The notes: generated from the sequence alone by a model not told the origin. Shown: positions 2,287-34,473, counted from the first letter of the stretch. The stretch is 35,464 nt of DNA from Omnitrophica bacterium RIFCSPLOWO2_01_FULL_45_10b (GCA_001804205.1 MHFM01000009.1:21730-57193), one strand, 5' to 3'. Numbers and translations: made by a program.

Positions 2287-3468
2287 ATGAGAATTCATCC
2301 CGCCGTCGTTTTTCTCGCCGCTCTTCTTATCTTTGGGGTCCCTTCCGTTCAAGCGAAAGAAAACTCGTGGGAACAACATCTGAACCGCTCCGAAACTTTT
2401 TATCAAATGGGAAAATATGCAGAGGGAATTAATGAAGCCAAAGAAGCGCTTGCAGTTGCTGAGAAACAATTTGGACAAGATCGCCCTGAAATTGCGCAGT
2501 CGCTAAGCAATTTAGCCAGATTTCACAAGATCCAAAGTGATTATCGTGAAGCCGAGCTTCTTATAAAGAAATCTTTGGAAATACGCGAAAAAGCTTTTGG
2601 TCCTGATCATCCTGAAGTGGCAAATTCCCTCAATAATTTAGCAGGTCTTTATCACTCCCAAGGGAAATATACCGAAGCAGAACCTCTGTACCAGCGTGCA
2701 CTGCAAATATGGGAAGGGGCTTTAAATTTTGATCACCCCACCGTTGCCGGATGCTTAAATAATTTGGCCGAACTTTATCGCGCACAAGGCAGATATACGG
2801 ATGCCGAACCGCTTTACAGACGGACGTTGAGCATTTGGGAAAAAACAATGGGTTCAGAGCACCCTTATGTGGGCGGTGTTTTGAATAATTTGGGTGAGCT
2901 TTACAAAGCTCAGGGAGCTTATGTTGCGGCTGAGCCTCTTTTGGAACGGTCGTTGAAAATCTGGGAGAAAAATTTAGGGCATTATCATCCCGACGTGGCC
3001 CAGTCTCTCAACAATTTGGGTGAGCTTTATTTTGCCCAGAAAAACTACCAAAAAGCCGAGTCTTTATTTAAAGGTTCCTTGGCCATACGCGAAAAAGTAC
3101 TTGGAAAAGATCATCCCGATGCGGCGCAATCGCTCAATAATTTAGCCGTGCTTTATGAAACGCAAGGCGATCTTGATGAAGCCGAATCTTTATTTAAACG
3201 TGCCTTGGCGATTCGAGAAAAAACATTAGGTCCGGTTCATCCTGATTTAGCGACTTCTTTAAATGATCTTGCTAATCTTTATCATTCCCAAAGCAGATAT
3301 TCAGACGCCGAACCTCTTTACAAACGCGCCATTGAAATTATGGGAAAAGTTTTAGGGCCCGATCATCCGCATGTTGAAACCACCATGGAAAATCTTGCCG
3401 CACTTTATGAAACGCAAGGCAAGTATCCCGAAGCTCAAGCCCTTCGCACGCAGCTTGAGCGGCAGTAA
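2287..3468 (+). CDS. secreted tetratricopeptide repeat protein (kinesin-light-chain-type TPR_10/12 repeats)
   Basis: Signal peptide MRIHPAVVFLAALLIFGVPSVQA, followed by about 8 tandem 42-aa units of the form A.SLNNLA.LY..QG.Y..AEPLY.R.L.I.EK.LG.DHP. The start (2287 versus GTG 2266) is uncertain because no SD is visible. Confidence 0.85.
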   Translation: MRIHPAVVFLAALLIFGVPSVQAKENSWEQHLNRSETFYQMGKYAEGINEAKEALAVAEKQFGQDRPEIAQSLSNLARFHKIQSDYREAELLIKKSLEIREKAFGPDHPEVANSLNNLAGLYHSQGKYTEAEPLYQRALQIWEGALNFDHPTVAGCLNNLAELYRAQGRYTDAEPLYRRTLSIWEKTMGSEHPYVGGVLNNLGELYKAQGAYVAAEPLLERSLKIWEKNLGHYHPDVAQSLNNLGELYFAQKNYQKAESLFKGSLAIREKVLGKDHPDAAQSLNNLAVLYETQGDLDEAESLFKRALAIREKTLGPVHPDLATSLNDLANLYHSQSRYSDAEPLYKRAIEIMGKVLGPDHPHVETTMENLAALYETQGKYPEAQALRTQLERQ

Positions 3469-4407: not shown

Positions 4408-5436
4408 TTAGATTTTTAACACGATTTTTCCAAAATTTTTCCGGTCGAGCATACGCTGATGGGCTTCACGCGCTTCCGTAAGGGGGAACGTGGAGTCAAC
4501 GACAGGTTTTACGCTTCCTTTATTAAGAAGTTCAACAGCTTTATTCAGTTCTTCGAGGCCACCCATGTAGCATCCCATTACTGCATGCTGGCGGACGAAC
4601 AGGAATCGAAGGTCTAATTGAACGGCCGAACCGCTTGTGGTGCCGCAGGTAACGAGCCGGCCTCTTTTTGCAAGGGCGGCAAGGCTTTTCAAAAATGTTT
4701 CCGCACCGATATGCTCAAGCACAATATCAACCCCTTGCCCTTGAGTTAAATCGCGGGCCCTTTTTCCGAAATCCGTTTTTTTATAATTAATCACTTCATC
4801 GGCACCCAGTTCCTTTGCGCGCTTTTCCTTTTCATCGCTTCCGACCGTTGTAATCACGCGCGCTCCAAACACTTTTGCGATTTGAATTCCGGCGCTCCCC
4901 ACGCCCGATCCAGCAGCGTGGACGAGAACCGTTTCTCCCTTTTGGAGTTTCGCTCGTGTGATGAGCATGTGCCAGGCGGTTAAAAAAACCAAAGGGCATG
5001 CGGCCCATTCTTCCCAAGAATATCGATCAGAAATGGGAATCAAATTTCTCACCGGCACTTTTACAAATTCAGCGTAACCGCCGTCGATTTGAAAACCGAT
5101 GATTTTATATTGATCGCAAAGCGAATCCCACCCGTCTTTGCACCAGTTACAGGAACCGCAGGAAATTCCGGGAGCGATAATGACATGCATTCCTTTGGAA
5201 ATTCCGGTTACGTTTGCGCCTATTTTTTCTACTTCACCTGAAATATCGCATCCAAGAATATGGGGGAGCGGAATGGGGACGCCCGGCATTCCTTGGCGGG
5301 TCCAGATGTCCAGGTGATTCAGCGCGCACGCGCGCACGCGAATGAGCACTTCATCAGATCCGATTTTTGGTTCCGGAACATCCGTATAAATCAGTCGGTC
5401 GATATCACCGTGTTCCTTGAAAATAATCGCTTTCAT
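4408..5436 (-). CDS. zinc-dependent alcohol dehydrogenase / medium-chain reductase family oxidoreductase
   Basis: 342 aa. Catalytic zinc region LGCDISGEV, structural zinc loop CGSCNWCKDGWDSLC, Rossmann motif VHAAGSGVGSAGIQIAK. Confidence 0.88.
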   Translation of the reverse strand: MKAIIFKEHGDIDRLIYTDVPEPKIGSDEVLIRVRACALNHLDIWTRQGMPGVPIPLPHILGCDISGEVEKIGANVTGISKGMHVIIAPGISCGSCNWCKDGWDSLCDQYKIIGFQIDGGYAEFVKVPVRNLIPISDRYSWEEWAACPLVFLTAWHMLITRAKLQKGETVLVHAAGSGVGSAGIQIAKVFGARVITTVGSDEKEKRAKELGADEVINYKKTDFGKRARDLTQGQGVDIVLEHIGAETFLKSLAALAKRGRLVTCGTTSGSAVQLDLRFLFVRQHAVMGCYMGGLEELNKAVELLNKGSVKPVVDSTFPLTEAREAHQRMLDRKNFGKIVLKI

Positions 5437-5523
5437 CCCCCACCAACTTTCGTTAACAGTTCAATTGGGTGAATCAAAAAATTTTTGAAATCAATGTATC
5501 CTTTTTTAAAAAGTTGGCGGGGG
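5437..5523 (-). repeat. 87-nt intercistronic element, copy A (14-nt terminal inverted arms)
   Basis: It fills the stop-to-start gap between the O-methyltransferase gene and the ADH gene. Read on the minus (sense) strand it is TGAT-CCCCCGCCAACTTT...AAAGTTGGTGGGGG-ATG. By hand count, 73 of 87 positions match copy B (8841..8927) in an ungapped alignment. Confidence 0.8.
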
Positions 5524-5524
5524 A

Positions 5525-6160
5525 TCATTTTATCTTATAAGCAACGCCGACTCCGTCTCGAATCGGCAGAAGCGTGGAAATAAAATTGCAATCGTTGAAT
5601 AACATTTGATTGAATTTTTTGATGCCTTCGGTTGCAGAATCGCCCTTTTTTTCAAGCACCTGCCCGAACCACAAGAGGTTATCTGCGATGAGAAGCCCGC
5701 CGGACTTGATTTTTGGCTTCGCCAATTCCAAAGCTTTCGGATAGGATTCTTTATCCATATCGATAAAAATAATATCGAAACTTTCTTTCGTTTGAGACAG
5801 AGCCTCAATGGCGTCGCCAACATGAAATTGAGCTTTACGAATTAAATTTCCTTTGGTGAAAAATTGTTTCGCAAGCTCTAAATTTTTGGCGGATTGGTCC
5901 GTGAGATAGATAATCCCGTCTTCGGGAAGGGCAAGCGCAAACCAAAAGGCCGAATAGCCAAAGCCCGAACCCATTTCGAAGATTTTTTTAGCCCCCGTCA
6001 TTTTGGCGAGCTGGTAAAGAAGTCTGCCGACAAGCGGGCCGACCAATGGAAAGTTGATTTTGTTGCCCCGCTCGTTCATTTCGGCCAAAAGCGGGTCTTC
6101 TACCGGGTAAAGGTTTTGAATATAGCGTTCGATTTCCGGAGAGGTAACAAGGGTTTCCAT
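5525..6160 (-). CDS. class I SAM-dependent O-methyltransferase (caffeoyl-CoA OMT / YrrM-like)
   Basis: SAM motif I EMGSGFGYSAFWFA, plus FDIIFIDMDKESYP and GGLLIADNLLWFG. Start set at METLVTSPEIERY (ATG 6160). The upstream 31 codons of track ORF 5525..6253 read into a repeat element. Confidence 0.85.
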   Translation of the reverse strand: METLVTSPEIERYIQNLYPVEDPLLAEMNERGNKINFPLVGPLVGRLLYQLAKMTGAKKIFEMGSGFGYSAFWFALALPEDGIIYLTDQSAKNLELAKQFFTKGNLIRKAQFHVGDAIEALSQTKESFDIIFIDMDKESYPKALELAKPKIKSGGLLIADNLLWFGQVLEKKGDSATEGIKKFNQMLFNDCNFISTLLPIRDGVGVAYKIK

Positions 6161-6169
6161 CGGAGCGAA

Positions 6170-6178
6170 ATTATAGCA
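6170..6178 (-). promoter_or_regulatory. extended -10 element (TGCTATAAT) placed 9 nt upstream of the ATG; possible leaderless transcript
   Basis: The minus strand reads TGC-TATAAT-ttcgctccg-ATG. No SD lies between the -10 and the start. Confidence 0.35.
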
Positions 6179-6215
6179 CCAGCTCCTTAAATTTAGTACT
6201 ATATTTAGGTAATTC

Positions 6216-6310
6216 GTCATTGTGAGGCGGCGAACCAGTCGAAGCCGAAGCAATCTAAGGTTCTGAGATTGCTTCGTCCCGCCGCCTTCGGCGGCAGTCC
6301 TCGCAATGAC
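6216..6310. repeat. palindromic repeat, GTCATTGCGAGC/GAAGCAATC family (RPE/REP-like), intergenic copy
   Basis: GTCATTGTGAGG...GAAGCAATC (6216..6255) is followed by its inverted partner GATTGCTTCGTC...CTCGCAATGAC (6267..6310), with an inner GCCGCC-ttcg-GGCGGC hairpin. It lies between the divergent O-MT and polX genes. Confidence 0.8.
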
Positions 6311-6324
6311 GAGGAGATAACTTT

Positions 6325-8043
6325 ATGGACAACAAAGAAATCGCCCAGATTTTAGAAGAGATTGCGGAACTGCTTGAAATTAAGGGCGAAAATCCGTTCA
6401 AAATCCGCGCTTATCATAATGGGGCACGAGTCATTGAAGGATTGGCAAGCGACATCGCCGAATTTGCCCGGTCAGGTAAATTGCGCGAGATTAAAGGCAT
6501 TGGCGAAGGTCTTGCCGAGAAAATTACGGAGCTCGTCAAAACCGGGAAATGTAAATATCATCATGAGCTGACCAAATCCCTTCCCGCCGGTATTTTAGAT
6601 TTGCTTCAAATCCCAGGGCTTGGGCCCAAGCGAGCCAAAGCACTTTTCGAGAAGCTTAAAATTAAAAGTGTGGCTGAACTTGAGCGGGCCTGCCATGAAA
6701 ATCGATTGGTGGATTTAGACGGATTTGGCGAAAAATCTCAGGCTAAAGTTTTAGAAGCCATTAAACACCACAAGAAGACAGAAGGATATTTTTTGATTTC
6801 ACAAGCAAAGGAGGAAAGCGAGAAATTTCTTCAGTATCTTAAGAAATCCAAAGGCATTTCCCGAATTGAAGTCGCCGGAAGCATTAGGCGTCACAAGGAA
6901 ATTGTCCATGATATGGATATTTTAATTAGCACGAAACGCCCCGCCCCAATCCATCAAGCGTTTACAAGTTATCCAGCCGTCGATCAAATTCTTGCGAAGG
7001 GCGAAACCAAGTCAAGCGTCATTTTAAAATCTGGAATTCAAGCAGATCTCAGAACAGTAAGCGATTCAGAATTTCCAAGCGCTCTTTATTATTTTACGGG
7101 AAGCAAAGAGCACAATGTAGCGACGCGTACGATCGCAAAACGAATGGGGCTTAAAATCAGCGAGTACGGAATTTTTAAAGGTACAAAACCCATTCCATGT
7201 AAGGATGAGGAAGCCATTTTTAAAGTTTTGGGCCTTCGTTATATTCCGCCCGAGCTTCGTGAAAATACCGGTGAAATTGAGGCAGCAAAAAAAGGACCGC
7301 TCCCAAAATTAATTGAACTGGAAGATATCAGGGGCGTTTTTCACGTTCATTCTACCTATAGCGATGGCACCGCTTCGCTTGAAGCCATGATTCATCATTC
7401 TGAAGAACTTGGTTATGAATATGTGGGGATTTCAGATCACTCGAAAACCGCCGTTTATGCCAATGGTCTTTCCGAGGCGAGGCTTGAGAAGCAAAATAAG
7501 GAACTCGATCGTCTCGAGCGAAAATTCAAAAAGATCAGGATTTTCCGCGGAATTGAATCTGATATTTTAGCGGATGGTTCCCTTGATTACCCGGATCGTG
7601 TGCTCAAGAAATTTGATTTTGTTGTTGGTTCCATTCATTCTCGTTTCAGCATGTCTGAAAAAGAAATGACCAAGCGTATCGCACGCGCCATGTCGCATCC
7701 GGCGATGACCATTTGGGGCCATCCGACCGGGCGGCTTCTTTTGGGGCGGGCAGGTTATGCGATTAATTACGATGCGCTTTTTGAAACTGCGGAAAAATAT
7801 GGCGTAGCGATCGAACTGAATGCCAACCCACATCGTTTGGATTTGGATTGGCGTTTTTGCAAAAAGCCAAAAGCAATGGGCCTCCGCTTCAGCATCAATC
7901 CCGATGCCCATAGCCTTGACGGTTTAAGCGATGTGGCCTATGGTGTGGGTATTGCGCGAAAAGGTTGGCTTGAGAAAAATGATGCGCTTAATACAATGTC
8001 CGTTTTGGAAGTAGAAAAATACTTGCGAGGCCGTAAAAAATGA
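6325..8043 (+). CDS. polX: family X DNA polymerase with C-terminal PHP phosphoesterase domain (PolX)
   Basis: 572 aa. N-terminus NKEIAQILEEIAELLEIKGENPFKIRAYHNGARVIE, HhH motifs (IKGIGEGLAEKI, IPGLGPKRA), catalytic GSIRR.KE.VHDMDIL, PHP motifs HVHSTYSDG and NPDAH. Confidence 0.93.
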   Translation: MDNKEIAQILEEIAELLEIKGENPFKIRAYHNGARVIEGLASDIAEFARSGKLREIKGIGEGLAEKITELVKTGKCKYHHELTKSLPAGILDLLQIPGLGPKRAKALFEKLKIKSVAELERACHENRLVDLDGFGEKSQAKVLEAIKHHKKTEGYFLISQAKEESEKFLQYLKKSKGISRIEVAGSIRRHKEIVHDMDILISTKRPAPIHQAFTSYPAVDQILAKGETKSSVILKSGIQADLRTVSDSEFPSALYYFTGSKEHNVATRTIAKRMGLKISEYGIFKGTKPIPCKDEEAIFKVLGLRYIPPELRENTGEIEAAKKGPLPKLIELEDIRGVFHVHSTYSDGTASLEAMIHHSEELGYEYVGISDHSKTAVYANGLSEARLEKQNKELDRLERKFKKIRIFRGIESDILADGSLDYPDRVLKKFDFVVGSIHSRFSMSEKEMTKRIARAMSHPAMTIWGHPTGRLLLGRAGYAINYDALFETAEKYGVAIELNANPHRLDLDWRFCKKPKAMGLRFSINPDAHSLDGLSDVAYGVGIARKGWLEKNDALNTMSVLEVEKYLRGRKK

Positions 8044-27458: not shown

Positions 27459-27848
27459 ATGAAAAAAAATAAAGGCGGAAAACAATTTAAAACTAATTCC
27501 AAACTGCTCCGCGGTTTTTTAACCGAGAGAGAAGTGGAGCTTCTTCACCGCCAAATCCGAATCAATTCCATTGCAATGGATCGTTATATTCAAACCATTG
27601 ATCTCTTGGCCAATAAAGAAAAATGCCCGAAGGATGCCAACACACTTATGTATCTGCGCAGCCAATTATCGATCGCCATTGCCGAAAACGATACCTTTCG
27701 TAAAGTTCTTTGGCGCCATGCTCAATGCGTAGAAAGCCAGCTTTCGTCCGATTCAGATTTAGATGCCGCTTCATTTTTAGTCGGTCGGATTAATTCCCGC
27801 AGAAAAGCGCTCATGGCTCAAATGGCGATGACCCGCCGGAGTTCATAG
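27459..27848 (+). CDS. hypothetical protein (basic N-terminus, predicted helical)
   Basis: 129-aa ORF. AGGAA lies about 10 nt upstream. No recognisable motif. It ends 2 nt before the next ORF. Confidence 0.5.
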   Translation: MKKNKGGKQFKTNSKLLRGFLTEREVELLHRQIRINSIAMDRYIQTIDLLANKEKCPKDANTLMYLRSQLSIAIAENDTFRKVLWRHAQCVESQLSSDSDLDAASFLVGRINSRRKALMAQMAMTRRSS

Positions 27849-27850
27849 TC

Positions 27851-28168
27851 ATGGCTGATAAACCCGAACAAGAAGAAAAAGAAAAACCGAAGGCTGAGCC
27901 TTCCGAAAAACAGGAATCAAAAGCTCCGGCCTCAGAAAAGCCTGCGGAACCGAAAGCCGCTGCTCCCGCAAAAGAAGAGAAACCAAAGGCGCAGGAAAAA
28001 CCGGAACCTGCCGAGAAAAAGGGCAAGAAAATCAGCCGAATGACACTTGCCGAAGTGGAAGTTGAATTGAAGGGTGTTCAAGAAAAGATGGGTGGGTTTG
28101 AATCCAATTTCGCCCAGCATTTGCTCGCCCGCAAAAAAGAATTAAGCCAGCCCACAGCACGCTCTTAA
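27851..28168 (+). CDS. hypothetical protein (Lys/Glu/Pro-rich disordered N-half plus ~45-aa helical C-terminal module)
   Basis: 105 aa. GGAG lies 9 nt upstream. KEKPKAEPSEKQESKAPASEKPAEPKAAAPAKEEKPKAQEKPEPAEKK, then ISRMTLAEVEVELKGVQEKMGGFESNFAQHLLARKKEL. Confidence 0.5.
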   Translation: MADKPEQEEKEKPKAEPSEKQESKAPASEKPAEPKAAAPAKEEKPKAQEKPEPAEKKGKKISRMTLAEVEVELKGVQEKMGGFESNFAQHLLARKKELSQPTARS

Positions 28169-28201: not shown

Positions 28202-31200
28202 TTAGCCTTCCGTTGGGATTTGGTTTTCGCCTTGGGCCATCGGTGTGGTTTGCGAGGGTTTAATAAGGGCAGGTTTTTGAGCTTGGGTTGTTTGGTCCAG
28301 CCGCTTCTTCATTTGTTCTAACACTTCCAGATAAAGACCCTCTGAAATTTCTTCTTTCCGGACTTTTTCTTGCATTTGTTGGAGCTCTCCTTCCGGTATC
28401 GGAATCGTGGAATCTACAAGCGTAATATTCTCAAATTGTATCGAAAAGTTTGGCGGAACTTGATCGGGGAAAGCAATGGTCACCTCGGCTTTATCGGTAA
28501 GCCCATCGATCACATCTTTTTGTTCGATGTTTTTATCTTCTGGAATTAAAATCTCATTGAGATTTTTTACTTTTGGTTCCTTCGCAGTGGTTACAAATTG
28601 TTCGTCCTTTGTTTTCTTCTCCTCTTTCCACCAGAATCGATAAAGATCACTCACGTCTTGATGTTCACCCCATGCGCTTAAATAGCTCTCATTACCACGG
28701 AAGGCCCTTTCTTTCAAACCTTGTACGGTGGGATTATAAATAAGAAAGGCAGTGAACACTTTTTCTAAGAGGCTTATTTGCGCCTGCGGTTTTGCGAAGA
28801 CAATAGGATCGAAGCTGAAAAATTGACTGGCAATACCGCTATTTTCCGGGAGTTCGCTCCAAGCACGCACCCGGACGAAGAACGAACCATCATTAGGAAG
28901 TGTGATTTCTTCATGTGAACCGCTCGGCCAGAATGATTGGTCAATGGTTTTGAAATCCGGGTCTTTTGAAAGTTGTACTTCATAAATCCGCGTGTTTTGT
29001 AATGCAGGCCAGTTGATGCTCAGCCTCCCAGCGCTATCCAAGGCCGGCGTTGGAGCGTCTGTAATTTGGCGTAAAGCAAATATATCAACCGCGAACGATT
29101 GCGGATCGGACCATAGGCTTAACGGTCCGTTCTCGATTTGCTGGTTTTTGGAAGCCCTGACGCGCGCTTCGTAATTTCCGTTTTCCGACAAGTGAATAGG
29201 CTCAAAATTTCCGCTTGGGAAGCCCTCATAAACAACTTGTCCGTTTTTTATGACCTGTACCTGATAAATGACGGCGCCATCCAACGCATTAAAATTGATG
29301 GCAACGTCTCCGTTTGTACTCGTTGGAATGGACTGAACCGCAGGTTTAGATTGCATAAATACAAGTTCGGCGCGATAGGTTTCTTCGGCCTTTAGCGCCT
29401 GAAAGAAAAGCTCTTCCAATGTGTTAAAGATAACTCGCACTCCATTGCCATCAGGAAACGCTACGTTTGCTTGGTAGAGAGCTGAATTCATTCCTTTGTC
29501 CTTATTGGGTTGAATGTCTGTGATTTCGGAAAGCGGGTTGCCATCAGCATCCGTGCGGGTGATGCTCCGAAGGATAAGCGGTCCGAAGCCTATGAGCATT
29601 CCATACTCATCTCGGTAGCCAGTCACAACATAACCATACCTGAGTTCACTCTTTGATATTACCTTTTCATCTTTATCGAGATCAATGACGGTTTGAATGT
29701 GATGTTGTCCATCATCTTCCATTTCTGGGAGATTGAGATCTTTTTGGAGAGTGACATCACGGCTGGCCACGTCGCCTTGTGATCCGTCGTGATAAACAAT
29801 CGTTAGGTCTGGATCGTGCGCCCAATAACTGATTTCTTTCACGAGTTTTCCCGTCGGGCAAGGGGCCATTATACAAACAAGGTAGGGATCCCCATCGTAG
29901 ATCTTTACAGATTTAAGACGACTTTCCTCACTGATTGAGTTTGAGGCATTGTCAAAATACTGAAGCTCGACATAATAATCTTCCCCAATATAAAAACTTC
30001 CTGATGTCACATAGTAGTGAAGTCCTTCACCGGGACAGGGTGCAGTGTCACACTCAACAGTAAAAGTGCCTAAGGTATAATGGATTTCGGATGGAAGTTT
30101 ATTTGGTCCGAGAGGATCGGTTAAATTCACTGCCCATGCCGGAAGGTTCACGCTTGAGTCAATCGTGACGGTGGCTTGCGTGCCCTTTACCGTGATTTGG
30201 ATCAGCCCTTGATCAATGTATTCATTCACTTGATTCAGCCCAAGCCCGAAGTTTTCGGCGAGGTCCTTTACAATAGGCACAATCGGTTGATAGGTTTGTA
30301 TCTCTTCTTCCGCCTTCGATCTAAGGGCGTAGCCTTCCGCTAATTTATCCGAAGCCTTGGGCAGGGGATTTTCAACTTCAGGTGGCAGAGGCTCTTCCGC
30401 TACCATCTCTGGCATTGGAAATTCATCGGCAAGTTGATTCAGTTCGTCTGCGGTTTGAGCCGCTGCAACCATCGCTTGGTAATTTGCAAGGGCTTCATTT
30501 CTATATTGTAGGTAGCGCCCGATGGCGCCATTCCATACAGTAATGTTGTGCTCGCCGTCTTGCCTTAATTGATTACGATATGCCTCGGCTTCGCTCGGAA
30601 AGCCATTTGGATCGCTCGGGTCTAAATAACGTGCAAGGTCAACAAGGAATCCGTCGCGAATTAGGGAAGCAGTGCCGCTTTTTACGCCCGTTGTGCCGAG
30701 AACAGCAGTTAGGGAATTTCCTATATCATTAAGGGCTCCTGTCATGAAATCAACGTCCCCATTAAAAGCGTTAATTCGTTCTTCAACACGTGCTCCTTCG
30801 CCTGCAATTAGTGCTAGAAGTTGCGCCCATTCGATATCGCCGGCTTCGATTGCGGCATTGATACGGTCATAGATAGACATTCGAAGCGTTTCAAGATCGA
30901 GAGGCTGAGTTTGAACCTCAAACTCAGTAGTTCCAGATATTTCGCCCGATTGATTTGAAAGCACGATGACATAAGAAGTATCCGGGCTTAAACCACCGAA
31001 TTCAGCACTGCAAGATTCTGAACACCAGACACTTGTTTCAGCAGTGGGTGAATATATCCCCCAGCCCCGACTATGATACATATAGTAGGTGGGATCCCAT
31101 ACGCTTATCGTTACATTCGAATAATCTCCGGAGGTATTCAAATGAACCGTAACATCCGTTGATCCAGCGCTTATACCTGCAGAATCTATGTGAATAGGAT

Positions 31201-33229
31201 AAATTGGGTCCGGTATAGGTTCAGGTTCTGGTTCAGGCTCAGGAGTCGGCTCAGGTTCGGGCGTAGGCTCAGGCGTAGGTTCAGGCTCGGGCATCGGCTG
31301 AGTTTGAACCTCAAACTCAGTAGTTCCAGATATCTCGCCCGATTGATTTGAAAGCACGATGACATAAGAAGTATCCGGGCTTAAACCGCCCAATTGGGCA
31401 CTGCAAGATTCTAAACACCAGACACTTGTTTCAGCAGTGGGTGAATATATCCCCCAGCCCCGACTATGATACATATAGTAGGTGGGATCCCATACGCTTA
31501 TGGTTACATCCAAAGAATCTCCGGAGGTATTCAAATGAACCGTAACATCCGTTGTTCCCGCGCTTATATCTGCGGAATCTATGTAAATGATACTAGGAGG
31601 AGAAATTGGGTCTGGTTCCGGATCCGGTTGTGGTTCTGGTTCAGGTTCTGGAATAGGCTCAGGAGTCGGCTCAGGTTCAGGCGTAGGCTCAGGTGTGGGT
31701 TCAGGTTCAGACATTGACTGAGTTTGAAAATCAAAAGTGGTTGTTCCGAATATCTCGCCCGATTGATTTGAAAGCACGATGACATAAGAAGTATCCGGGC
31801 TTAAGCCGTCTATTTGAGCGCTGCAAAATCCCGAACATGAGACGGTTGTTTCGGCAGTGGGTGAATATATCCCCCAGCCCCGACTATGATACATATAGGA
31901 GGTGGGATCCCATACGCTCACGGTTACATCCGGAGAATATCCGGAGGTAATAAAATTAACCGTAACATCTGTTGATCCTGCGCTTATATCTGCAGAGTCT
32001 ATGTAAATAATACTAGGAGGCGGAGAAATTGGTTCTGGTTCCGGATCCGGTTGCGGTTCTGGCGTAGGTTCAGGTGTGGGTTCAGGTTCTGGCATAGGCT
32101 CAGGAGTCGGCTCAGGTTCAGGCGTAGGCTCAGGTGTGGGTTCAGGCTCAGGCATCGGCTGAGTTTGAAAATCAAATATAGTAGTTCCAGATATTTCATC
32201 CGATTGATTTGAAAGCACGATGACATAAGAAGTATCCGGGCTTAAACCGCCCAATTGGGCACTGCAAGATTCTAAGCACCAAACACTTGCTTCAGCAGTG
32301 GGTGAATATCCCCAGCCCCATGTGTGATACATATAGGAGTTAGAATCCCATACGCTTATGGTTACATCCCAAGAATTCGAAGGATTCAAAGAATCTCCGG
32401 AGGTATTCAAATGAACCGTAACATCCGTTGATCCAGCGCTTATATCTGCAGAATCTATGTAAATAATGCTAGAAGGTGGAGAAATCGGGTCTGGTTCCGG
32501 ATCCGGTTGCGGTTCTGGCGTAGGTTCAGGTTCGGGCTCAGGCTCAGGAGTCGGTTCAGGTTCTGGCATAGGCTCAGGAGTCGGTTCAGGTTCAGGTGTA
32601 GGCTCAGGCTCAGGCGTAGGTTCTGGTTCTGTTTGAAAATCAAAACTAGTTTGTCCGGACAATACATAATCCGGCGAGCTTGGAGAAAGATCAAACCGAT
32701 AAAAACTTACAGGATTTAATCCGCTTGCATTCACTGCACAGCCCGATGAGCATGATGATACGGTTGTAGCAAATACCGCTGAGTTATTCGAATCATATAC
32801 CGTAGCATTTATAGGTGAAGAGTCGGATGCATACACATAAACGTTAGCAGATGTTGATCCTACATTGATTGCATCTAGAGAGATATATACGGTGGCGGGT
32901 TCTGGTTCTCCCGGCGCGGGTTCTGGATCCGGTTGCGGTTCTGGCATAGACTCAGAAGGAGACAACGGGTTATCCGCTTCTGCTAATTGATCTGTGGAAG
33001 TATCCGGCGGCGGCGTGTCCGTCGTTAAAGTGGTAGGCGCTAAAGGGTCCGTAGTCGGAACGAGTACGTCTGCCGCATTCATTGTTGGTGCAACGTTGGC
33101 AAGTGTAATAGGTGTTGGATAAATGATGAGACTGATTGCGAGTATAGCGGATAGACATTTCGCCACACCGCGTTTGAGGGGTGAAGATAAGTTTCGTTTC
33201 AGATAATAGGAATCGCTAGTTATCCTCAT
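28202..33229 (-). CDS. giant secreted modular protein (1,675 aa): signal anchor, five tandem Cys-pair modules on PEP linkers, unassigned core, two FN3-like domains, charged C-terminal region
   Basis: A single uninterrupted ORF. N-terminal hydrophobic segment [20 protein letters not shown]. Modules lie at aa 112-200, 254-356, 406-506, 546-645 and 677-776. FN3-like units lie at aa ~1296-1382 and ~1390-1476. There is no SD near the ATG at 33229, but no alternative in-frame start exists before the signal segment. Confidence 0.85.
30902..32896 (-). repeat. tandem coding repeats (four near-identical units of roughly 404-471 bp plus one divergent unit) with GGYTCR-periodic linker tracts
   Basis: The unit-start marker (G/A)GCTGAGTTTGAA... 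recurs at 30903, 31307, 31715 and 32157. A diverged form is at about 32628. Long identical runs are shared between units (for example GATTGATTTGAAAGCACGATGACATAAGAAGTATCCGGGCTTAA in all four). Confidence 0.9.
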
Positions 33230-33434: not shown

Positions 33435-34473
33435 ATGCTCAAAATCCACCAAAAGCGCTTCATCGGACACTTAGACCTGGACTGCTTTTTCGTCTCCTGT
33501 GAACGGATTAAAAATCCTGCGCTTGTAGGCAAACCCGTTATTGTCGGCGGCAACCAAACCACCCGTGGCGTCGTTTCCTCAGTTTTTAAATGAAGTGGTA
33601 CCGGTGGTGGAACAAGCTTCGATTGATGAATTTTATTTGGATTTAACGGGCTGCGAACGGATTTATCCTGAGATACTTTCCTTCGGCAGTTTTGTGAAAG
33701 AATATTTAGCTAAGGAGTTAAAACTTCCTTGCACCATTGGAATTGCTTCCAATAAGTTAGTTTCAAAGATTGCGGTCAATCAAGTGAAACCAAATGGTTT
33801 GATTCAAATTGAGCACGGCAGAGAAGCTGAATTTCTGGCGCCGCTTCCGGTCGGTGAGATGCCGGGAATTGGGAAAGCAACTCAGCGCGAAATGGACAAA
33901 CTGGGCATCCGTACATTGGGTCAAATTGCCGCCGCATCGGAATCATTTTTAGGCGGTTATTTTGGCGCCTGGGGAATTGAGTTTAAGCAGTTGGCAATGG
34001 GCGTGGATGATGCGCCCGTTACGCCATGGTCGGATCCCAAAAGCATCGGCCGAGAAACTACTTTTGAACATGACGTTGGAGATTCTGATCACTTGCTCTC
34101 GATTCTTTCTTCTTTTATTGAAGAGTGTTCAGCAGAACTTCGGAAATACCATTTTAAGGCCCGGACGGTTACGGTGAAGTTTCGCCTTCCGGATTTCACC
34201 ACCTTTGAGCGTTCCAAAACAGTCCCCGCCACCGATGATGAAGTGGAAATCTATAAGACGGCTGAAACATTGTTTCTCAAACATTGGAAGAGGGATGTAA
34301 AATTAAGGCTGATTGGCGTAAGTGTTTCTCATTTTACAACTCCTCAAAAAAATCAGGATTTATTTCCGGACACAAGCCGCGAGAAACGAGAGCAAATTGC
34401 AAAACAAGTGGATCAAATCCGCGCCAAATATGGTTTTGAAGCCATCCATTTAGGAAGTTCTCTCCGTATTTAG
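33435..34473 (+). pseudogene. dinB: DNA polymerase IV (dinB) disrupted by an internal out-of-frame deletion
   Basis: Frame A 33435..33593 encodes MLKIHQKRFIGHLDLDCFFVSCERIKNPALVGKPVIVGGNQTTRGVVSS, then VFK and a stop. Frame B (track ORF 33541..34473) resumes at FLNEVVPVVEQASIDEFYLDLTG and continues through the HhH, thumb and little-finger regions. About 40-45 residues that sit between these blocks in E. coli DinB are absent. Confidence 0.75.

Follow-up and report, generated by a model that had tools for sequence, protein, structure and literature searches.

We found that the window, the whole analysed stretch of 35,464 nucleotides, carries a real gene for a 1,675-aa protein, and that this protein contains a helical plus beta-meander cassette which defines a family of the Omnitrophota with at least 63 representatives, mostly large secreted proteins. 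The best reading of the sequence is that the protein is large and Sec-exported. By analogy with architecture and lifestyle, we propose, with a probability of about 0.55, that this protein of groundwater Omnitrophota is a fast-evolving, stalked surface fibre for contact with, or adhesion to, cells or particles. The Omnitrophota are candidate ultra-small bacteria with a host-dependent or predatory life, and an adhesin role has been suggested for their large, poorly annotated ORFs (PMC10066038; bioRxiv 10.1101/2023.11.21.568195; Nielsen & Lui 2026 preprint); the window protein shares with those ORFs the phylum, the export, the repetitive build and the almost wholly Pfam-dark sequence. It is thus best read as a variant of a surface-protein kind already suspected in the phylum, and not as a new multi-gene system. 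The features are listed below in the order of the protein, followed by the neighbouring ORFs.

28202..33229, minus strand: complete ORF with an ATG start, 1,675 aa plus stop, 14.2% of the window
33095..33229, minus strand: predicted Sec-type signal peptide (aa 1-45), with a basic n-region and a hydrophobic core at aa ~22-40
32894..33094, minus strand: acidic Pro/Thr/Asp-rich spacer (aa 46-112), net charge -13, 0 Lys/Arg
32636..32893, minus strand: module 1, a CSSGC-bearing, putative divergent FN3-like beta-sandwich (aa 113-198)
30905..32635, minus strand: modules 2-5 (aa 251-354, 404-501, 544-642 and 677-775) alternating with four (PEPT)n linkers (aa 199-250, 355-403, 502-543 and 643-676), together aa 199-775
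30329..30901, minus strand: family-specific, putatively helical domain of ~190 aa (aa 777-967)
29345..30292, minus strand: core beta-meander domain of ~310 aa (aa 980-1295), the family hallmark, predicted fold
28790..29344, minus strand: two ~90-aa units of beta-sandwich type (aa 1296-1480), FN3/PPC-like, putative fold
28202..28789, minus strand: orphan mixed-charge tail of ~195 aa (aa 1481-1675), without anchor or known sorting signal
27459..28168, plus strand: two Pfam-less ORFs of 129 aa and 105 aa converging on the 3' end of the gene, context only

The gene and its N-terminus

The initial annotation had noted a minus-strand ORF taking up about 14% of the window, in agreement with the extent given above. 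GTG at codon 22 is an alternative in-frame start, and NCBI annotates the identical sequence with a start at codon 166, by which the signal peptide is lost. The GC content of the ORF resembles that of the remainder of the window. The ORF region recurs with 100% identity in a second assembly, the MAG GCA_001804055.1 (NCBI; Omnitrophota, class Omnitrophia), which may share reads with the window assembly; the comparison, with the NCBI contig MHFF01000056.1, covered 5,701 nt (5.7 kb) and showed no difference. The gene belongs to an Omnitrophia-class bacterium of the population RIFCSPHIGHO2_02_FULL_46_11.

A chimera of repeat-containing reads had been considered from the start. At least 6 contigs of other assemblies terminate within the gene, some of them in the repeat region, and one scaffold carries an N-gap there, as misjoined repeat reads or a non-functional ORF might leave it. 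However, the longest exact DNA repeat among the modules is 88 bp, which is shorter than the k=141 given in the contig name, the sequence recurs unchanged in MHFF01000056.1, and dN/dS between paralogous modules is 0.24-0.56, indicating purifying selection on the repeats. Moreover, the non-repeat part is kept across the family of 63 representatives. A chimera is therefore extremely improbable, and the count of five modules holds provisionally, as assembled.

At the N-terminus, the signal/anchor segment followed by a Pro/Thr-rich stalk that had been described at first was recovered, the single hydrophobic segment of the protein lying at aa ~18-47 and the spacer at aa 46-112. By eye, we read a basic n-region (K11, R12, K19, R20 and K24), the hydrophobic stretch and T-L-A followed by N, which would serve Sec export, with signal peptidase I likely cleaving after Y-P-T-P-I-T-L-A and before N. 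The homologues begin with comparable signal peptides, about half of them with the motif Q-x-x-P-x-G-[LFW]-A (a strict regex found it within the first 75 residues of 32 of 63 sequences, with ~25 matches at the signal-peptide end), to which the window signal end is a loose match. The first ~108 aa also resemble the N-terminus of the family member P0005. All 14 post-signal Cys lie in 7 tight pairs, either CxxxC (160/164, 318/322, 465/469, 605/609 and 736/740) or CxxxxC (1060/1065 and 1119/1124). Export is suggested by these Cys pairs together with the N-terminal position of the sole hydrophobic segment and the similar signal peptides of the relatives. A lipoprotein (signal peptidase II) identity was rejected, since V-A-K precedes Cys25 and Lys at -1 excludes the lipobox [LVI][ASTVI][GAS]C.

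The proposed acidic repeat stalk

The ~730 residues after the signal peptide would form an extended, Lys-free and strongly acidic stalk, in which stiff (PEPT)n rods of polyproline-II type may keep five FN3-like beads apart, the CxxxC in each bead being a putative disulfide; at full stretch, such a stalk might measure roughly 90 nm. P-E-P repeat linkers probably adopt an extended polyproline-II conformation. The initial annotation had described five tandem ~100-aa modules with a Cys pair ([27 protein letters not shown]) and a strand-like motif ([23 protein letters not shown]), separated by linkers of roughly 30 to 55 residues. Direct reading located both strings, and the layout stood, with five modules of ~90-105 aa, a CxxxC in each, and four (P-E-P-T)n linkers of 34-52 residues. 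Mutual identity among modules 2-5 is 75-88%, and module 1 shares 32-37% identity with them. Each of modules 2-5 carries the CxxxC pair and G-L-S-P-D-T-S-Y, and as DNA the region of aa 199-775 is a ~420-bp tandem repeat with 3.2 copies and 81% matches.

The modules, part of an architecture that the initial annotation could not map to a known family, are probably divergent FN3-type beta-sandwiches, for which the evidence is weak but consistent. Their G-L-S-P-D-T-S-Y aligns with the FN3 pattern L-x-P-x-T-x-Y (L-x-P-G-T-E-Y in fibronectin/tenascin), and hhalign against fibronectin/tenascin FN3 placed them in register (E 4e-4, probability 35%), at a length of ~90-100 aa. The best 8 matches in a PDB profile search were all FN3-containing proteins (E 0.04-0.9). 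The Pfam matches to fn3 (PF00041; 2.3e-4, 21.8 bits) and Pur_ac_phosph_N (5.1e-5, 24.2 bits) stayed below their gathering cut-offs of 25 and 30, and Ig_TMEM132_4th, at 28.4 bits, was marginally above its cut-off of 27. Together with low-complexity matches in the linkers, this was the only Pfam/NCBIfam match of the protein above curated cut-offs. The linkers matched the TonB and Trypan_PARP models purely through their P-E-P repeats. The (EP)n segment of TonB and the EP repeats of trypanosome procyclin are likewise Pro-Glu-rich spacers, but this likeness is one of composition only and implies no homology, and the window protein has no TonB C-terminal domain.

The absence of the usual adhesin and toxin signatures, as stated in the initial annotation, was borne out: regex searches of the protein found no LPxTG, GGxGxD or YDxxG, and Pfam/NCBIfam searches at E<=1 found no RTX, cadherin, BIg, autotransporter, PEP-CTERM, T9SS-CTD or SLH family. 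Pfam/NCBIfam likewise gave no confident match to a characterised adhesin or S-layer family. No adhesive, lectin, anchoring or outer-membrane-secretion signal was recognised in Pfam/NCBIfam, motif and hydrophobicity searches, the hydrophobicity scan found no C-terminal hydrophobic segment or anchor, and no ligand-binding feature was identified in the protein. We infer its adhesion, ligand, outer-membrane passage, surface retention and orientation. A close architectural parallel is with fibrillar adhesins (SasG/Aap, Rib/alpha-like), which also have a signal peptide, beta-sandwich repeats in near-identical tandem copies, spacers of low complexity and a separate region outside the repeats, and whose repeats also break short-read assemblies. 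In contrast to that class, the window protein carries none of the known anchors, LPxTG, SLH and autotransporter included, its stalk is N-terminal and adjoins the signal peptide, long acidic (PEPT)n rods serve as its linkers, and its non-repeat domains are unrelated to catalogued adhesive domains.

The net charge of the protein is about -175, and aa 25-849 contain no Lys, compared with 7.9% Lys in the other window ORFs. Such extreme negative charge and 825 Lys-free residues, together with the bead-and-rod repeats, might instead belong to a structural coat or matrix, that is, an S-layer-like or envelope "velamen" protein whose acidic stalks act as a polyanionic brush around the cell. We consider this rather unlikely, because the protein lacks SLH or any other S-layer or self-assembly domain, it is encoded by one gene in a housekeeping context, and divergence and swapping at syntenic loci (see below) exceed what a conserved lattice would lead one to expect, though surface-layer proteins may evolve fast too.

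The helical and beta-meander cassette

In the proposed fibre, the C-terminal half would be the working end, made of the phylum-specific cassette (a ~190-aa helical and a ~310-aa beta-meander domain), two beta-sandwich units and the orphan tail. The helical segment and the Cys-containing region reported at first are present, the latter at ~310 aa instead of ~330, and both are recurring domains missing from Pfam and PDB sequences. An exhaustive HMMER search with a core profile seeded by the window sequence (aa ~986-1290) matched 63 cluster representatives at E<=1e-3, 36 of them at E<=1e-30; P0002 is 38% identical to the region of this profile (BLASTP E 2e-42). The named family members and genome loci are all from Omnitrophota. 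Most core-domain proteins are large, the longest having 6,396 aa; a signal peptide is present in many of them, and the core is often in tandem (2-6 copies). The helical domain was found in 33 instances in 15 family proteins, with up to 6 copies (P0008), and its comparison with PDB and Pfam gave nothing beyond generic coiled-coil or helical-bundle matches. The window protein has both elements, a core match and, upstream of it, the helical domain. The architecture, initially judged impossible to map, has indeed no counterpart among the curated families (Pfam, NCBIfam, PDB sequences), but the protein is not an orphan, given the 63 representatives.

An AlphaFold2 model of the core, built from a 34-sequence alignment (pLDDT 91.5, pTM 0.89), shows two helices at the N-terminal end, a meander of 15 antiparallel strands in sequential order and, at the C-terminal end, a helix of ~24 residues. 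In this model, both CxxxxC pairs fall in hairpin loops, and an I-T-R-T-D-A-x-G-N-x-L-S hairpin is conserved in the domain. No match to PDB sequences was found at E<=10, and a Pfam scan of 34 core-domain instances gave no recurrent match. In Foldseek searches the model had no global match in PDB (TM <= 0.26) or BFVD (TM <= 0.22); local 3Di matches were to YD-shell, OspA and MORN-type sheets, with E down to 4e-5 (PDB) and 2e-6 (BFVD). YD-repeat shells (teneurin, TcB/TcC), the OspA single-layer sheet and MORN repeats share with the core long runs of antiparallel beta-hairpins, but they do not superpose globally, have no sequence similarity to it and lack its flanking helices and disulfide-type loops. 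The claim that YD/RHS signatures are missing thus stands at the sequence level, while YD-shell proteins are among the structural neighbours, locally only, of the predicted core. An RHS/YD-repeat identity was rejected, as there was no RHS_repeat or YD HMM match and no YDxxG, and the structural likeness was local.

In giant proteins of Omnitrophota, West-Roberts et al. (2023, bioRxiv 10.1101/2023.11.21.568195) predict tubules made of an antiparallel beta-helix that is RHS-like and bears exterior helices at regular spacing. Might the core be of RHS/YD type or form tubules akin to these, and so serve to encapsulate toxins or puncture cells? Teneurin YD shells and TcdB2-TccC3 are among the Foldseek matches at E <= ~0.004, the T-D-A-x-G-N-x-L hairpin is like the YD hairpin, and the core is in tandem in many relatives. 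However, TM-scores were 0.14-0.26 with rmsd >16 A, RHS_repeat matched 0 of 34 core-domain instances, the single core copy of the window protein is too small for enclosing anything, and there is neither a toxin domain nor an RHS-type C-terminal protease or cleavage motif, which makes such an element very unlikely. There is a somewhat better, still small, chance that the cassette is the unit repeated in the hollow antiparallel beta-helix tubules of the giants and that the window protein is a minimal, single-cassette form on a ~90-nm, Lys-free and polyanionic stalk. If so, the cassette would be an uncatalogued, phylum-specific module for host contact or penetration, next to a LytS/LytTR sensor pair in several lineages.

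A LytS-type histidine kinase and a LytTR response regulator are adjacent to the family gene at the loci L001, L004, L005 and L019. This pair occurs neither in the window nor within 10 kb of the gene in either direction, so that it is not universal in the family; its absence counts against the preferred reading. Some relatives resemble the published giants in carrying dockerin or EF-hand modules. The window protein itself has 1,675 aa, compared with at least 10-30 kaa in the published giant classes, and lacks their dockerin, TSP3, discoidin, TM-anchor and SecA-like domains. West-Roberts et al. (2023, bioRxiv 10.1101/2023.11.21.568195) define the Dockerin-type and Archaeovorin classes by dockerin plus TSP3 repeats, or by many TM helices plus HEAT, enzyme or SecA-like domains, at lengths of tens of thousands of residues; membership was rejected for the window protein, with its one hydrophobic segment, its length and none of the defining domains.

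C-terminal units, tail and locus

The two FN3-like units and the charged tail of ~200 aa claimed earlier are present as two ~90-aa beta-type units and a ~195-aa tail. The units follow the pattern W-x-x-[LIV]-x-G-A-x-x-Y-E-[VI]-Q ... [VL]-R-[VL]-R-A, and P0004 holds one copy (aa 1198-1288). They matched PPC at 8.7e-5 (23.8 bits, below the cut-off of 25.9) and ChitinaseA_N at 0.029, and their PDB profile matches were Fn3-like proteins and a glucanase binding module (E 0.014-0.3). The tail had no Pfam match and no homologues except fragments of the same protein.

These weak likenesses could point to a carbohydrate-binding or cellulosome-like scaffold, which would bind prey cell wall or detritus polysaccharide alongside secreted enzymes. 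Pro/Thr-rich linkers are typical of cellulosomal proteins. Among 23 scanned family members, dockerin type I was found in 3 and EF-hand Ca-binding domains in 2, the rest being Pfam-dark; single members gave sub-threshold CBM60 or esterase-type matches, and a syntenic orthologue ends in DUF4114. Nevertheless, no dockerin, cohesin, CBM or catalytic domain scores above threshold in the window protein, and no glycoside hydrolases are encoded near the gene, leaving a scaffold role improbable.

The neighbourhood described initially, two small ORFs at the 3' end and a decayed dinB at the 5' side, was confirmed: dinB (IMS family) is split into ORFs of 52 aa and 310 aa, and the 129- and 105-aa ORFs are part of a plus-strand string of housekeeping genes that is syntenic in a related species. 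A search of related genomes for orthologs and conserved neighbours, as had been suggested, found the family itself and, around the gene, this conserved housekeeping synteny. To speak of an undescribed system was an overclaim, the locus holding a single gene within it. For the preferred surface fibre, a role at an organism-to-organism interface would lead us to expect fast divergence and swapping of the cassette and C-terminal modules. At the syntenic locus L016 of a related species, the neighbours are 64-83% identical and the cassette ~35%, and the orthologue has DUF4114 in place of the window C-terminus. The cassette and C-terminal modules diverge or are swapped much faster than the adjoining genes.

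Layout and integrity of the reading frame

A single unbroken reading frame with an ATG start occupies 28202-33229 on the minus strand, encodes 1,675 aa and takes up 14.2% of the window, and its GC is similar to that of the remaining window. The initial annotation had described a signal segment, a stalk, five tandem modules and a composite C-terminal half; this layout matches the translation, and the motif strings quoted for it were found. The parts are, in residues of the protein:

N-terminus: basic and then hydrophobic, the sole segment with mean hydropathy above 1.5
aa 46-112: Pro/Thr/Asp-rich spacer
five modules of ~90-105 aa apiece, with four (P-E-P-T)n linkers between them (52, 49, 42 and 34 residues)
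aa 777-967: helical stretch (helical domain)
~310-aa region with two CxxxxC pairs, containing the core domain (aa 980-1295)
aa 1296-1480: two ~90-aa beta-type units
C-terminus: ~195-aa tail

All cysteines beyond the signal lie in tight pairs, five CxxxC and two CxxxxC. Residues 25-849 (window 30683-33157) form a stretch of 825 residues without lysine and with only four arginines, whereas Lys makes up 7.9% and Arg 6.8% of the other window ORFs on average. The mature protein carries a net charge of about -175. Protease resistance and the keeping of a polyanionic stalk in an extended state are candidate explanations for the lysine-free stretch. Taken together, these results show that the protein is of an exported type, cysteine-paired, extremely acidic and modular.

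A DNA repeat with a period of ~420 bp (3.2 copies, 81% matches) lies in the ORF, and the initial annotation had named a chimeric assembly of repeat-containing reads as a possible source of the whole feature. At least six contigs of other assemblies end within the gene, some of them in the repeat region, and one scaffold has N-gaps inside it, as an artefact of this kind would predict. Against this, a second assembly (GCA_001804055.1, contig MHFF01000056.1) agrees at 100% identity across the full 5,701 nt that were compared, the longest exact DNA repeat among the modules is 88 bp, and the paralogous modules differ mainly at synonymous positions, with dN/dS of 0.24-0.56; an assembly artefact is thus unlikely. 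GCA_001804055.1 is the MAG RIFCSPHIGHO2_02_FULL_46_11 from Rifle groundwater, placed in Omnitrophota, Omnitrophia, Omnitrophales (Seymour et al., PMC10066038, supplementary table). The stretch is also carried by ENA contig k141_2357777 (97.6 kb). Since contigs break inside the gene and the full-length assemblies possibly derive from the same reads, a module count of five is supported, not proven. An apparent 14-nt insertion in the gapped scaffold turned out to be an N-gap and not a frameshift.

On the identical sequence of GCA_001804055.1 (locus L007, 8352-12884), NCBI calls a protein of 1,510 aa that starts at codon 166 of our ORF, so that the signal peptide is lost together with half to most of module 1. 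The longer ORF of 1,675 aa is preferable because the relatives start with similar signal peptides. A promoter and terminator scan returned counts at chance expectation.

We ran Pfam and NCBIfam on the entire protein and on six segments. Nothing passed the curated cut-offs except compositional matches of the linkers (Trypan_PARP, TonB, SslE) and a marginal Ig-like match of the modules to Ig_TMEM132_4th (28.4 bits, cut-off 27). The claim that the usual adhesin and toxin signatures are missing held in these scans and in motif searches, which found no RTX, RHS/YD, cadherin, BIg, autotransporter, LPXTG, PEP-CTERM, T9SS or SLH signature. Lipoprotein, LPxTG, RTX and PEP-CTERM readings were ruled out on sequence.

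For the modules, sub-threshold Pfam matches were obtained to fn3 (2.3e-4) and Pur_ac_phosph_N (5.1e-5), and the eight best matches of the five-module profile against PDB are FN3-containing proteins (E 0.04-0.9). Moreover, hhalign against five fibronectin/tenascin FN3 sequences paired G-L-S-P-D-T-S-Y with L-x-P-G-T-E-Y (E 4e-4). The simplest reading, with which these matches are weakly consistent, is that the modules may be divergent FN3-type beta-sandwiches. No homologue of this module type appeared among the family proteins described below, in a word-indexed profile search or in a metagenome scan with the module alignment, and hhalign found no relation between the modules and the FN3-like units of the C-terminus. 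The N-terminal 730 residues would form an extended bead-and-rod stalk of ~90 nm (244 linker and spacer residues at 3.1 Å each, plus ~3.5 nm per bead), which may present the C-terminal cassette of helical and core domains or be presented by it.

Large secreted proteins of one phylum-restricted family

Residues 777-1675, used as query in a word-indexed search, returned two matches: a piece of the window protein itself, and P0002, an Omnitrophica protein of 1,190 aa that contains dockerin and EF-hand modules and is 38% identical over aa 986-1288; phmmer of the same residues against PDB sequences gave no match. We then used the window protein and P0002 as a two-sequence profile for an exhaustive HMMER search of 1.84 billion representatives, and the core domain was found in 63 proteins at E<=1e-3, 36 of them at <=1e-30. 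A word-indexed search with a 34-sequence profile gave three matches. Word-indexed searches are thus nearly blind to the family, which the exhaustive search exposed.

Family proteins reach 6,396 aa, many of them carry 2-6 tandem copies of the core domain, and the ~190-aa helical domain occurs 33 times in 15 of them. All members and loci that bear an organism name (P0002, P0011, P0067, L004 and L005) are from Omnitrophota/Omnitrophica. In a Pfam scan of 23 members (~49,000 residues), Dockerin_1 was present in three and EF-hand in two, and the other matches were isolated and weak. No Pfam family recurred in 34 core-domain instances, and none beyond weak generic coiled-coil matches in 22 helical-domain instances. 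A link to RHS proteins was rejected, as the family yielded only one RHS_repeat match, which scored below threshold and fell outside the core domain.

In about half of the family, the signal peptide ends with Q-x-x-P-x-G-[LFW]-A (P0002, P0006, P0011, P0012, P0014, P0017, P0018, P0036, P0039, P0045, P0052, P0060 and others); the window protein has Y-P-T-P-I-T-L-A there, which matches this motif only loosely. Overall, these results show that the window protein is one of a family of large secreted proteins confined to a single phylum.

At one family locus (L005), a 392-aa protein without Pfam match (5169-6347) is encoded just upstream of a 1,901-aa family gene, and the two proteins carry a near-identical signal peptide, MKTLLFRNTAWLL[IV]LSFCFTQVAP, which suggests that the region of the export signal was duplicated locally.

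Predicted fold of the core domain and the C-terminal units

With an alignment of two sequences, AlphaFold2 gave an unusable model of the core domain (pLDDT 50), while 34 aligned instances raised pLDDT to 91.5 with pTM 0.89, all five models being at 89 or above. In the model, two short helices at the N-terminus lead into 15 antiparallel strands in direct succession, and a helix of 24 residues closes the C-terminal end. The two CxxxxC pairs are both placed in hairpin loops, which would be compatible with stapling by disulfides in an oxidising compartment.

The initial annotation had proposed structure prediction and Foldseek for this region; the model obtained is confident, and Foldseek found no global match to it, the best TM-scores being 0.26 in PDB and 0.22 in BFVD. 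The core profile likewise had zero matches to PDB sequences even at E<=10, and the helical-domain profile matched only generic coiled-coil and helical-bundle proteins there. Local Foldseek matches were hairpin-meander sheets, namely a Bacteroides "porin-like" protein, the YD shells of teneurin and TcB/TcC, OspA, LolA-like proteins and MORN repeats. The YD shells among them raise the alternative that the core is an RHS-like shell or tubule unit; however, this similarity is local only, and none of the 34 core-domain instances matches RHS_repeat.

The two units at aa 1296-1480 have the pattern W-x-x-[LIV]-x-G-A-x-x-Y ... R-[VL]-R-A in common with one unit of the family protein P0004, and gave sub-threshold matches to PPC, ChitinaseA_N and Fn3-like. 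They showed no relation to canonical FN3 in hhalign, and the ~195-aa tail had no relatives in the homologue search or among the family proteins.

Omnitrophota are widespread, ultra-small and apparently host-dependent bacteria, whose large surface proteins are thought to serve attachment or predation and are nearly all unannotated. The window protein represents one such surface-protein family in compact and fully assembled form. Its helical and beta-meander domains offer a starting point for the annotation of dozens of proteins several thousand residues long, and a construct that is tractable in binding and structural work. Large, repetitive, Pfam-dark and putatively adhesive surface proteins of this phylum have already been described (Seymour et al., PMC10066038; West-Roberts et al., 10.1101/2023.11.21.568195; Nielsen & Lui 2026 preprint). 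Unlike the Dockerin-type and Archaeovorin classes of West-Roberts et al., the window protein lacks dockerin, TSP3, multi-TM and SecA-like features, and its length is 10-50 times smaller. The same authors predicted "antiparallel beta-helix" or "ladder" repeat units, and the core domain may be one of these. New here are two recurrent domains, now explicitly defined, and a confident core model without a global PDB match.

Genomic context and putative role

The gene is surrounded by housekeeping genes, with phosphoglycerate mutase, aminotransferase and metallophosphoesterase, then dinB, SDR and Era. Its immediate neighbours are as the initial annotation had them, two small ORFs converging on the 3' end and a damaged dinB:

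27459-27848, plus strand: ORF of 129 aa (orf129), without Pfam match
27851-28168, plus strand: ORF of 105 aa (orf105), without Pfam match
33435-34473, plus strand: dinB (IMS family), split into ORFs of 52 aa and 310 aa that overlap at 33541-33593

The exact sequences of orf129 and orf105 recur on 14 and 9 contigs, respectively, from several public sources, and the N-terminal half of orf105 is low-complexity and Lys/Glu/Pro-rich. By eye, dinB lacks ~50 codons between the conserved RGVVS and SIDEFYLD, so that a frameshift is combined with an apparent internal deletion. Because the junction is identical in MHFF01000056.1 and the gapped scaffold (compared to 33700), dinB is probably a genuine pseudogene rather than the product of a sequencing error.

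A search of related genomes for orthologs and conserved neighbours, which the initial annotation had also proposed, uncovered a syntenic locus from a related species (L016, JGI metagenome), with matching neighbours 64-83% identical. There, too, the 3' end of the family gene faces two convergent small ORFs, which are 67% (orf129) and ~53-67% (orf105) identical to those of the window. The helical and core cassette is ~35% identical between the two loci, and in the related gene (33-2558) a DUF4114 C-terminus (27.3 bits, cut-off 27) replaces the FN3-like pair and the tail. This comparison indicates that the gene has kept its position, whereas its product exchanges modules and diverges roughly three times as fast as the neighbours, a contrast that suggests selection at an interface between cells.

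The likely role of the window protein would be to make contact with other cells or particles or to adhere to them, in agreement with published proposals on large Omnitrophota ORFs; a coat protein and a polysaccharide-binding scaffold are further competing readings. The initial annotation had seen here an undescribed cell-surface or extracellular system. The feature is real and was accurately described, but this interpretation is only partly right, as no new multi-component system or mechanism is revealed and the gene sits in a housekeeping string.

At four other loci, a LytS-type histidine kinase (5TM-5TMR_LYT, His_kinase) and a LytTR response regulator adjoin family genes; no such pair lies in the window or within 10 kb on either side of the gene:

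L001, 930-3271: LytS/LytTR pair
L004, 23-1316: LytS/LytTR pair
L005, 1889-4266: LytS/LytTR pair
L019, 7069-9391: LytS/LytTR pair, between two divergently placed family genes

A secreted protein of ~517 aa, which has no homologue in the window, lies beside the pair or a family gene at four loci (L005 339-1892, L001 542-865, L019 9513-9845 and L020 265-726); it has no Pfam match, and its C-terminal ~110 residues are conserved. At the syntenic locus of the related species, a gene for a family-4-type uracil-DNA glycosylase (2598-3266) is located between the family gene and the orf105 homologue.
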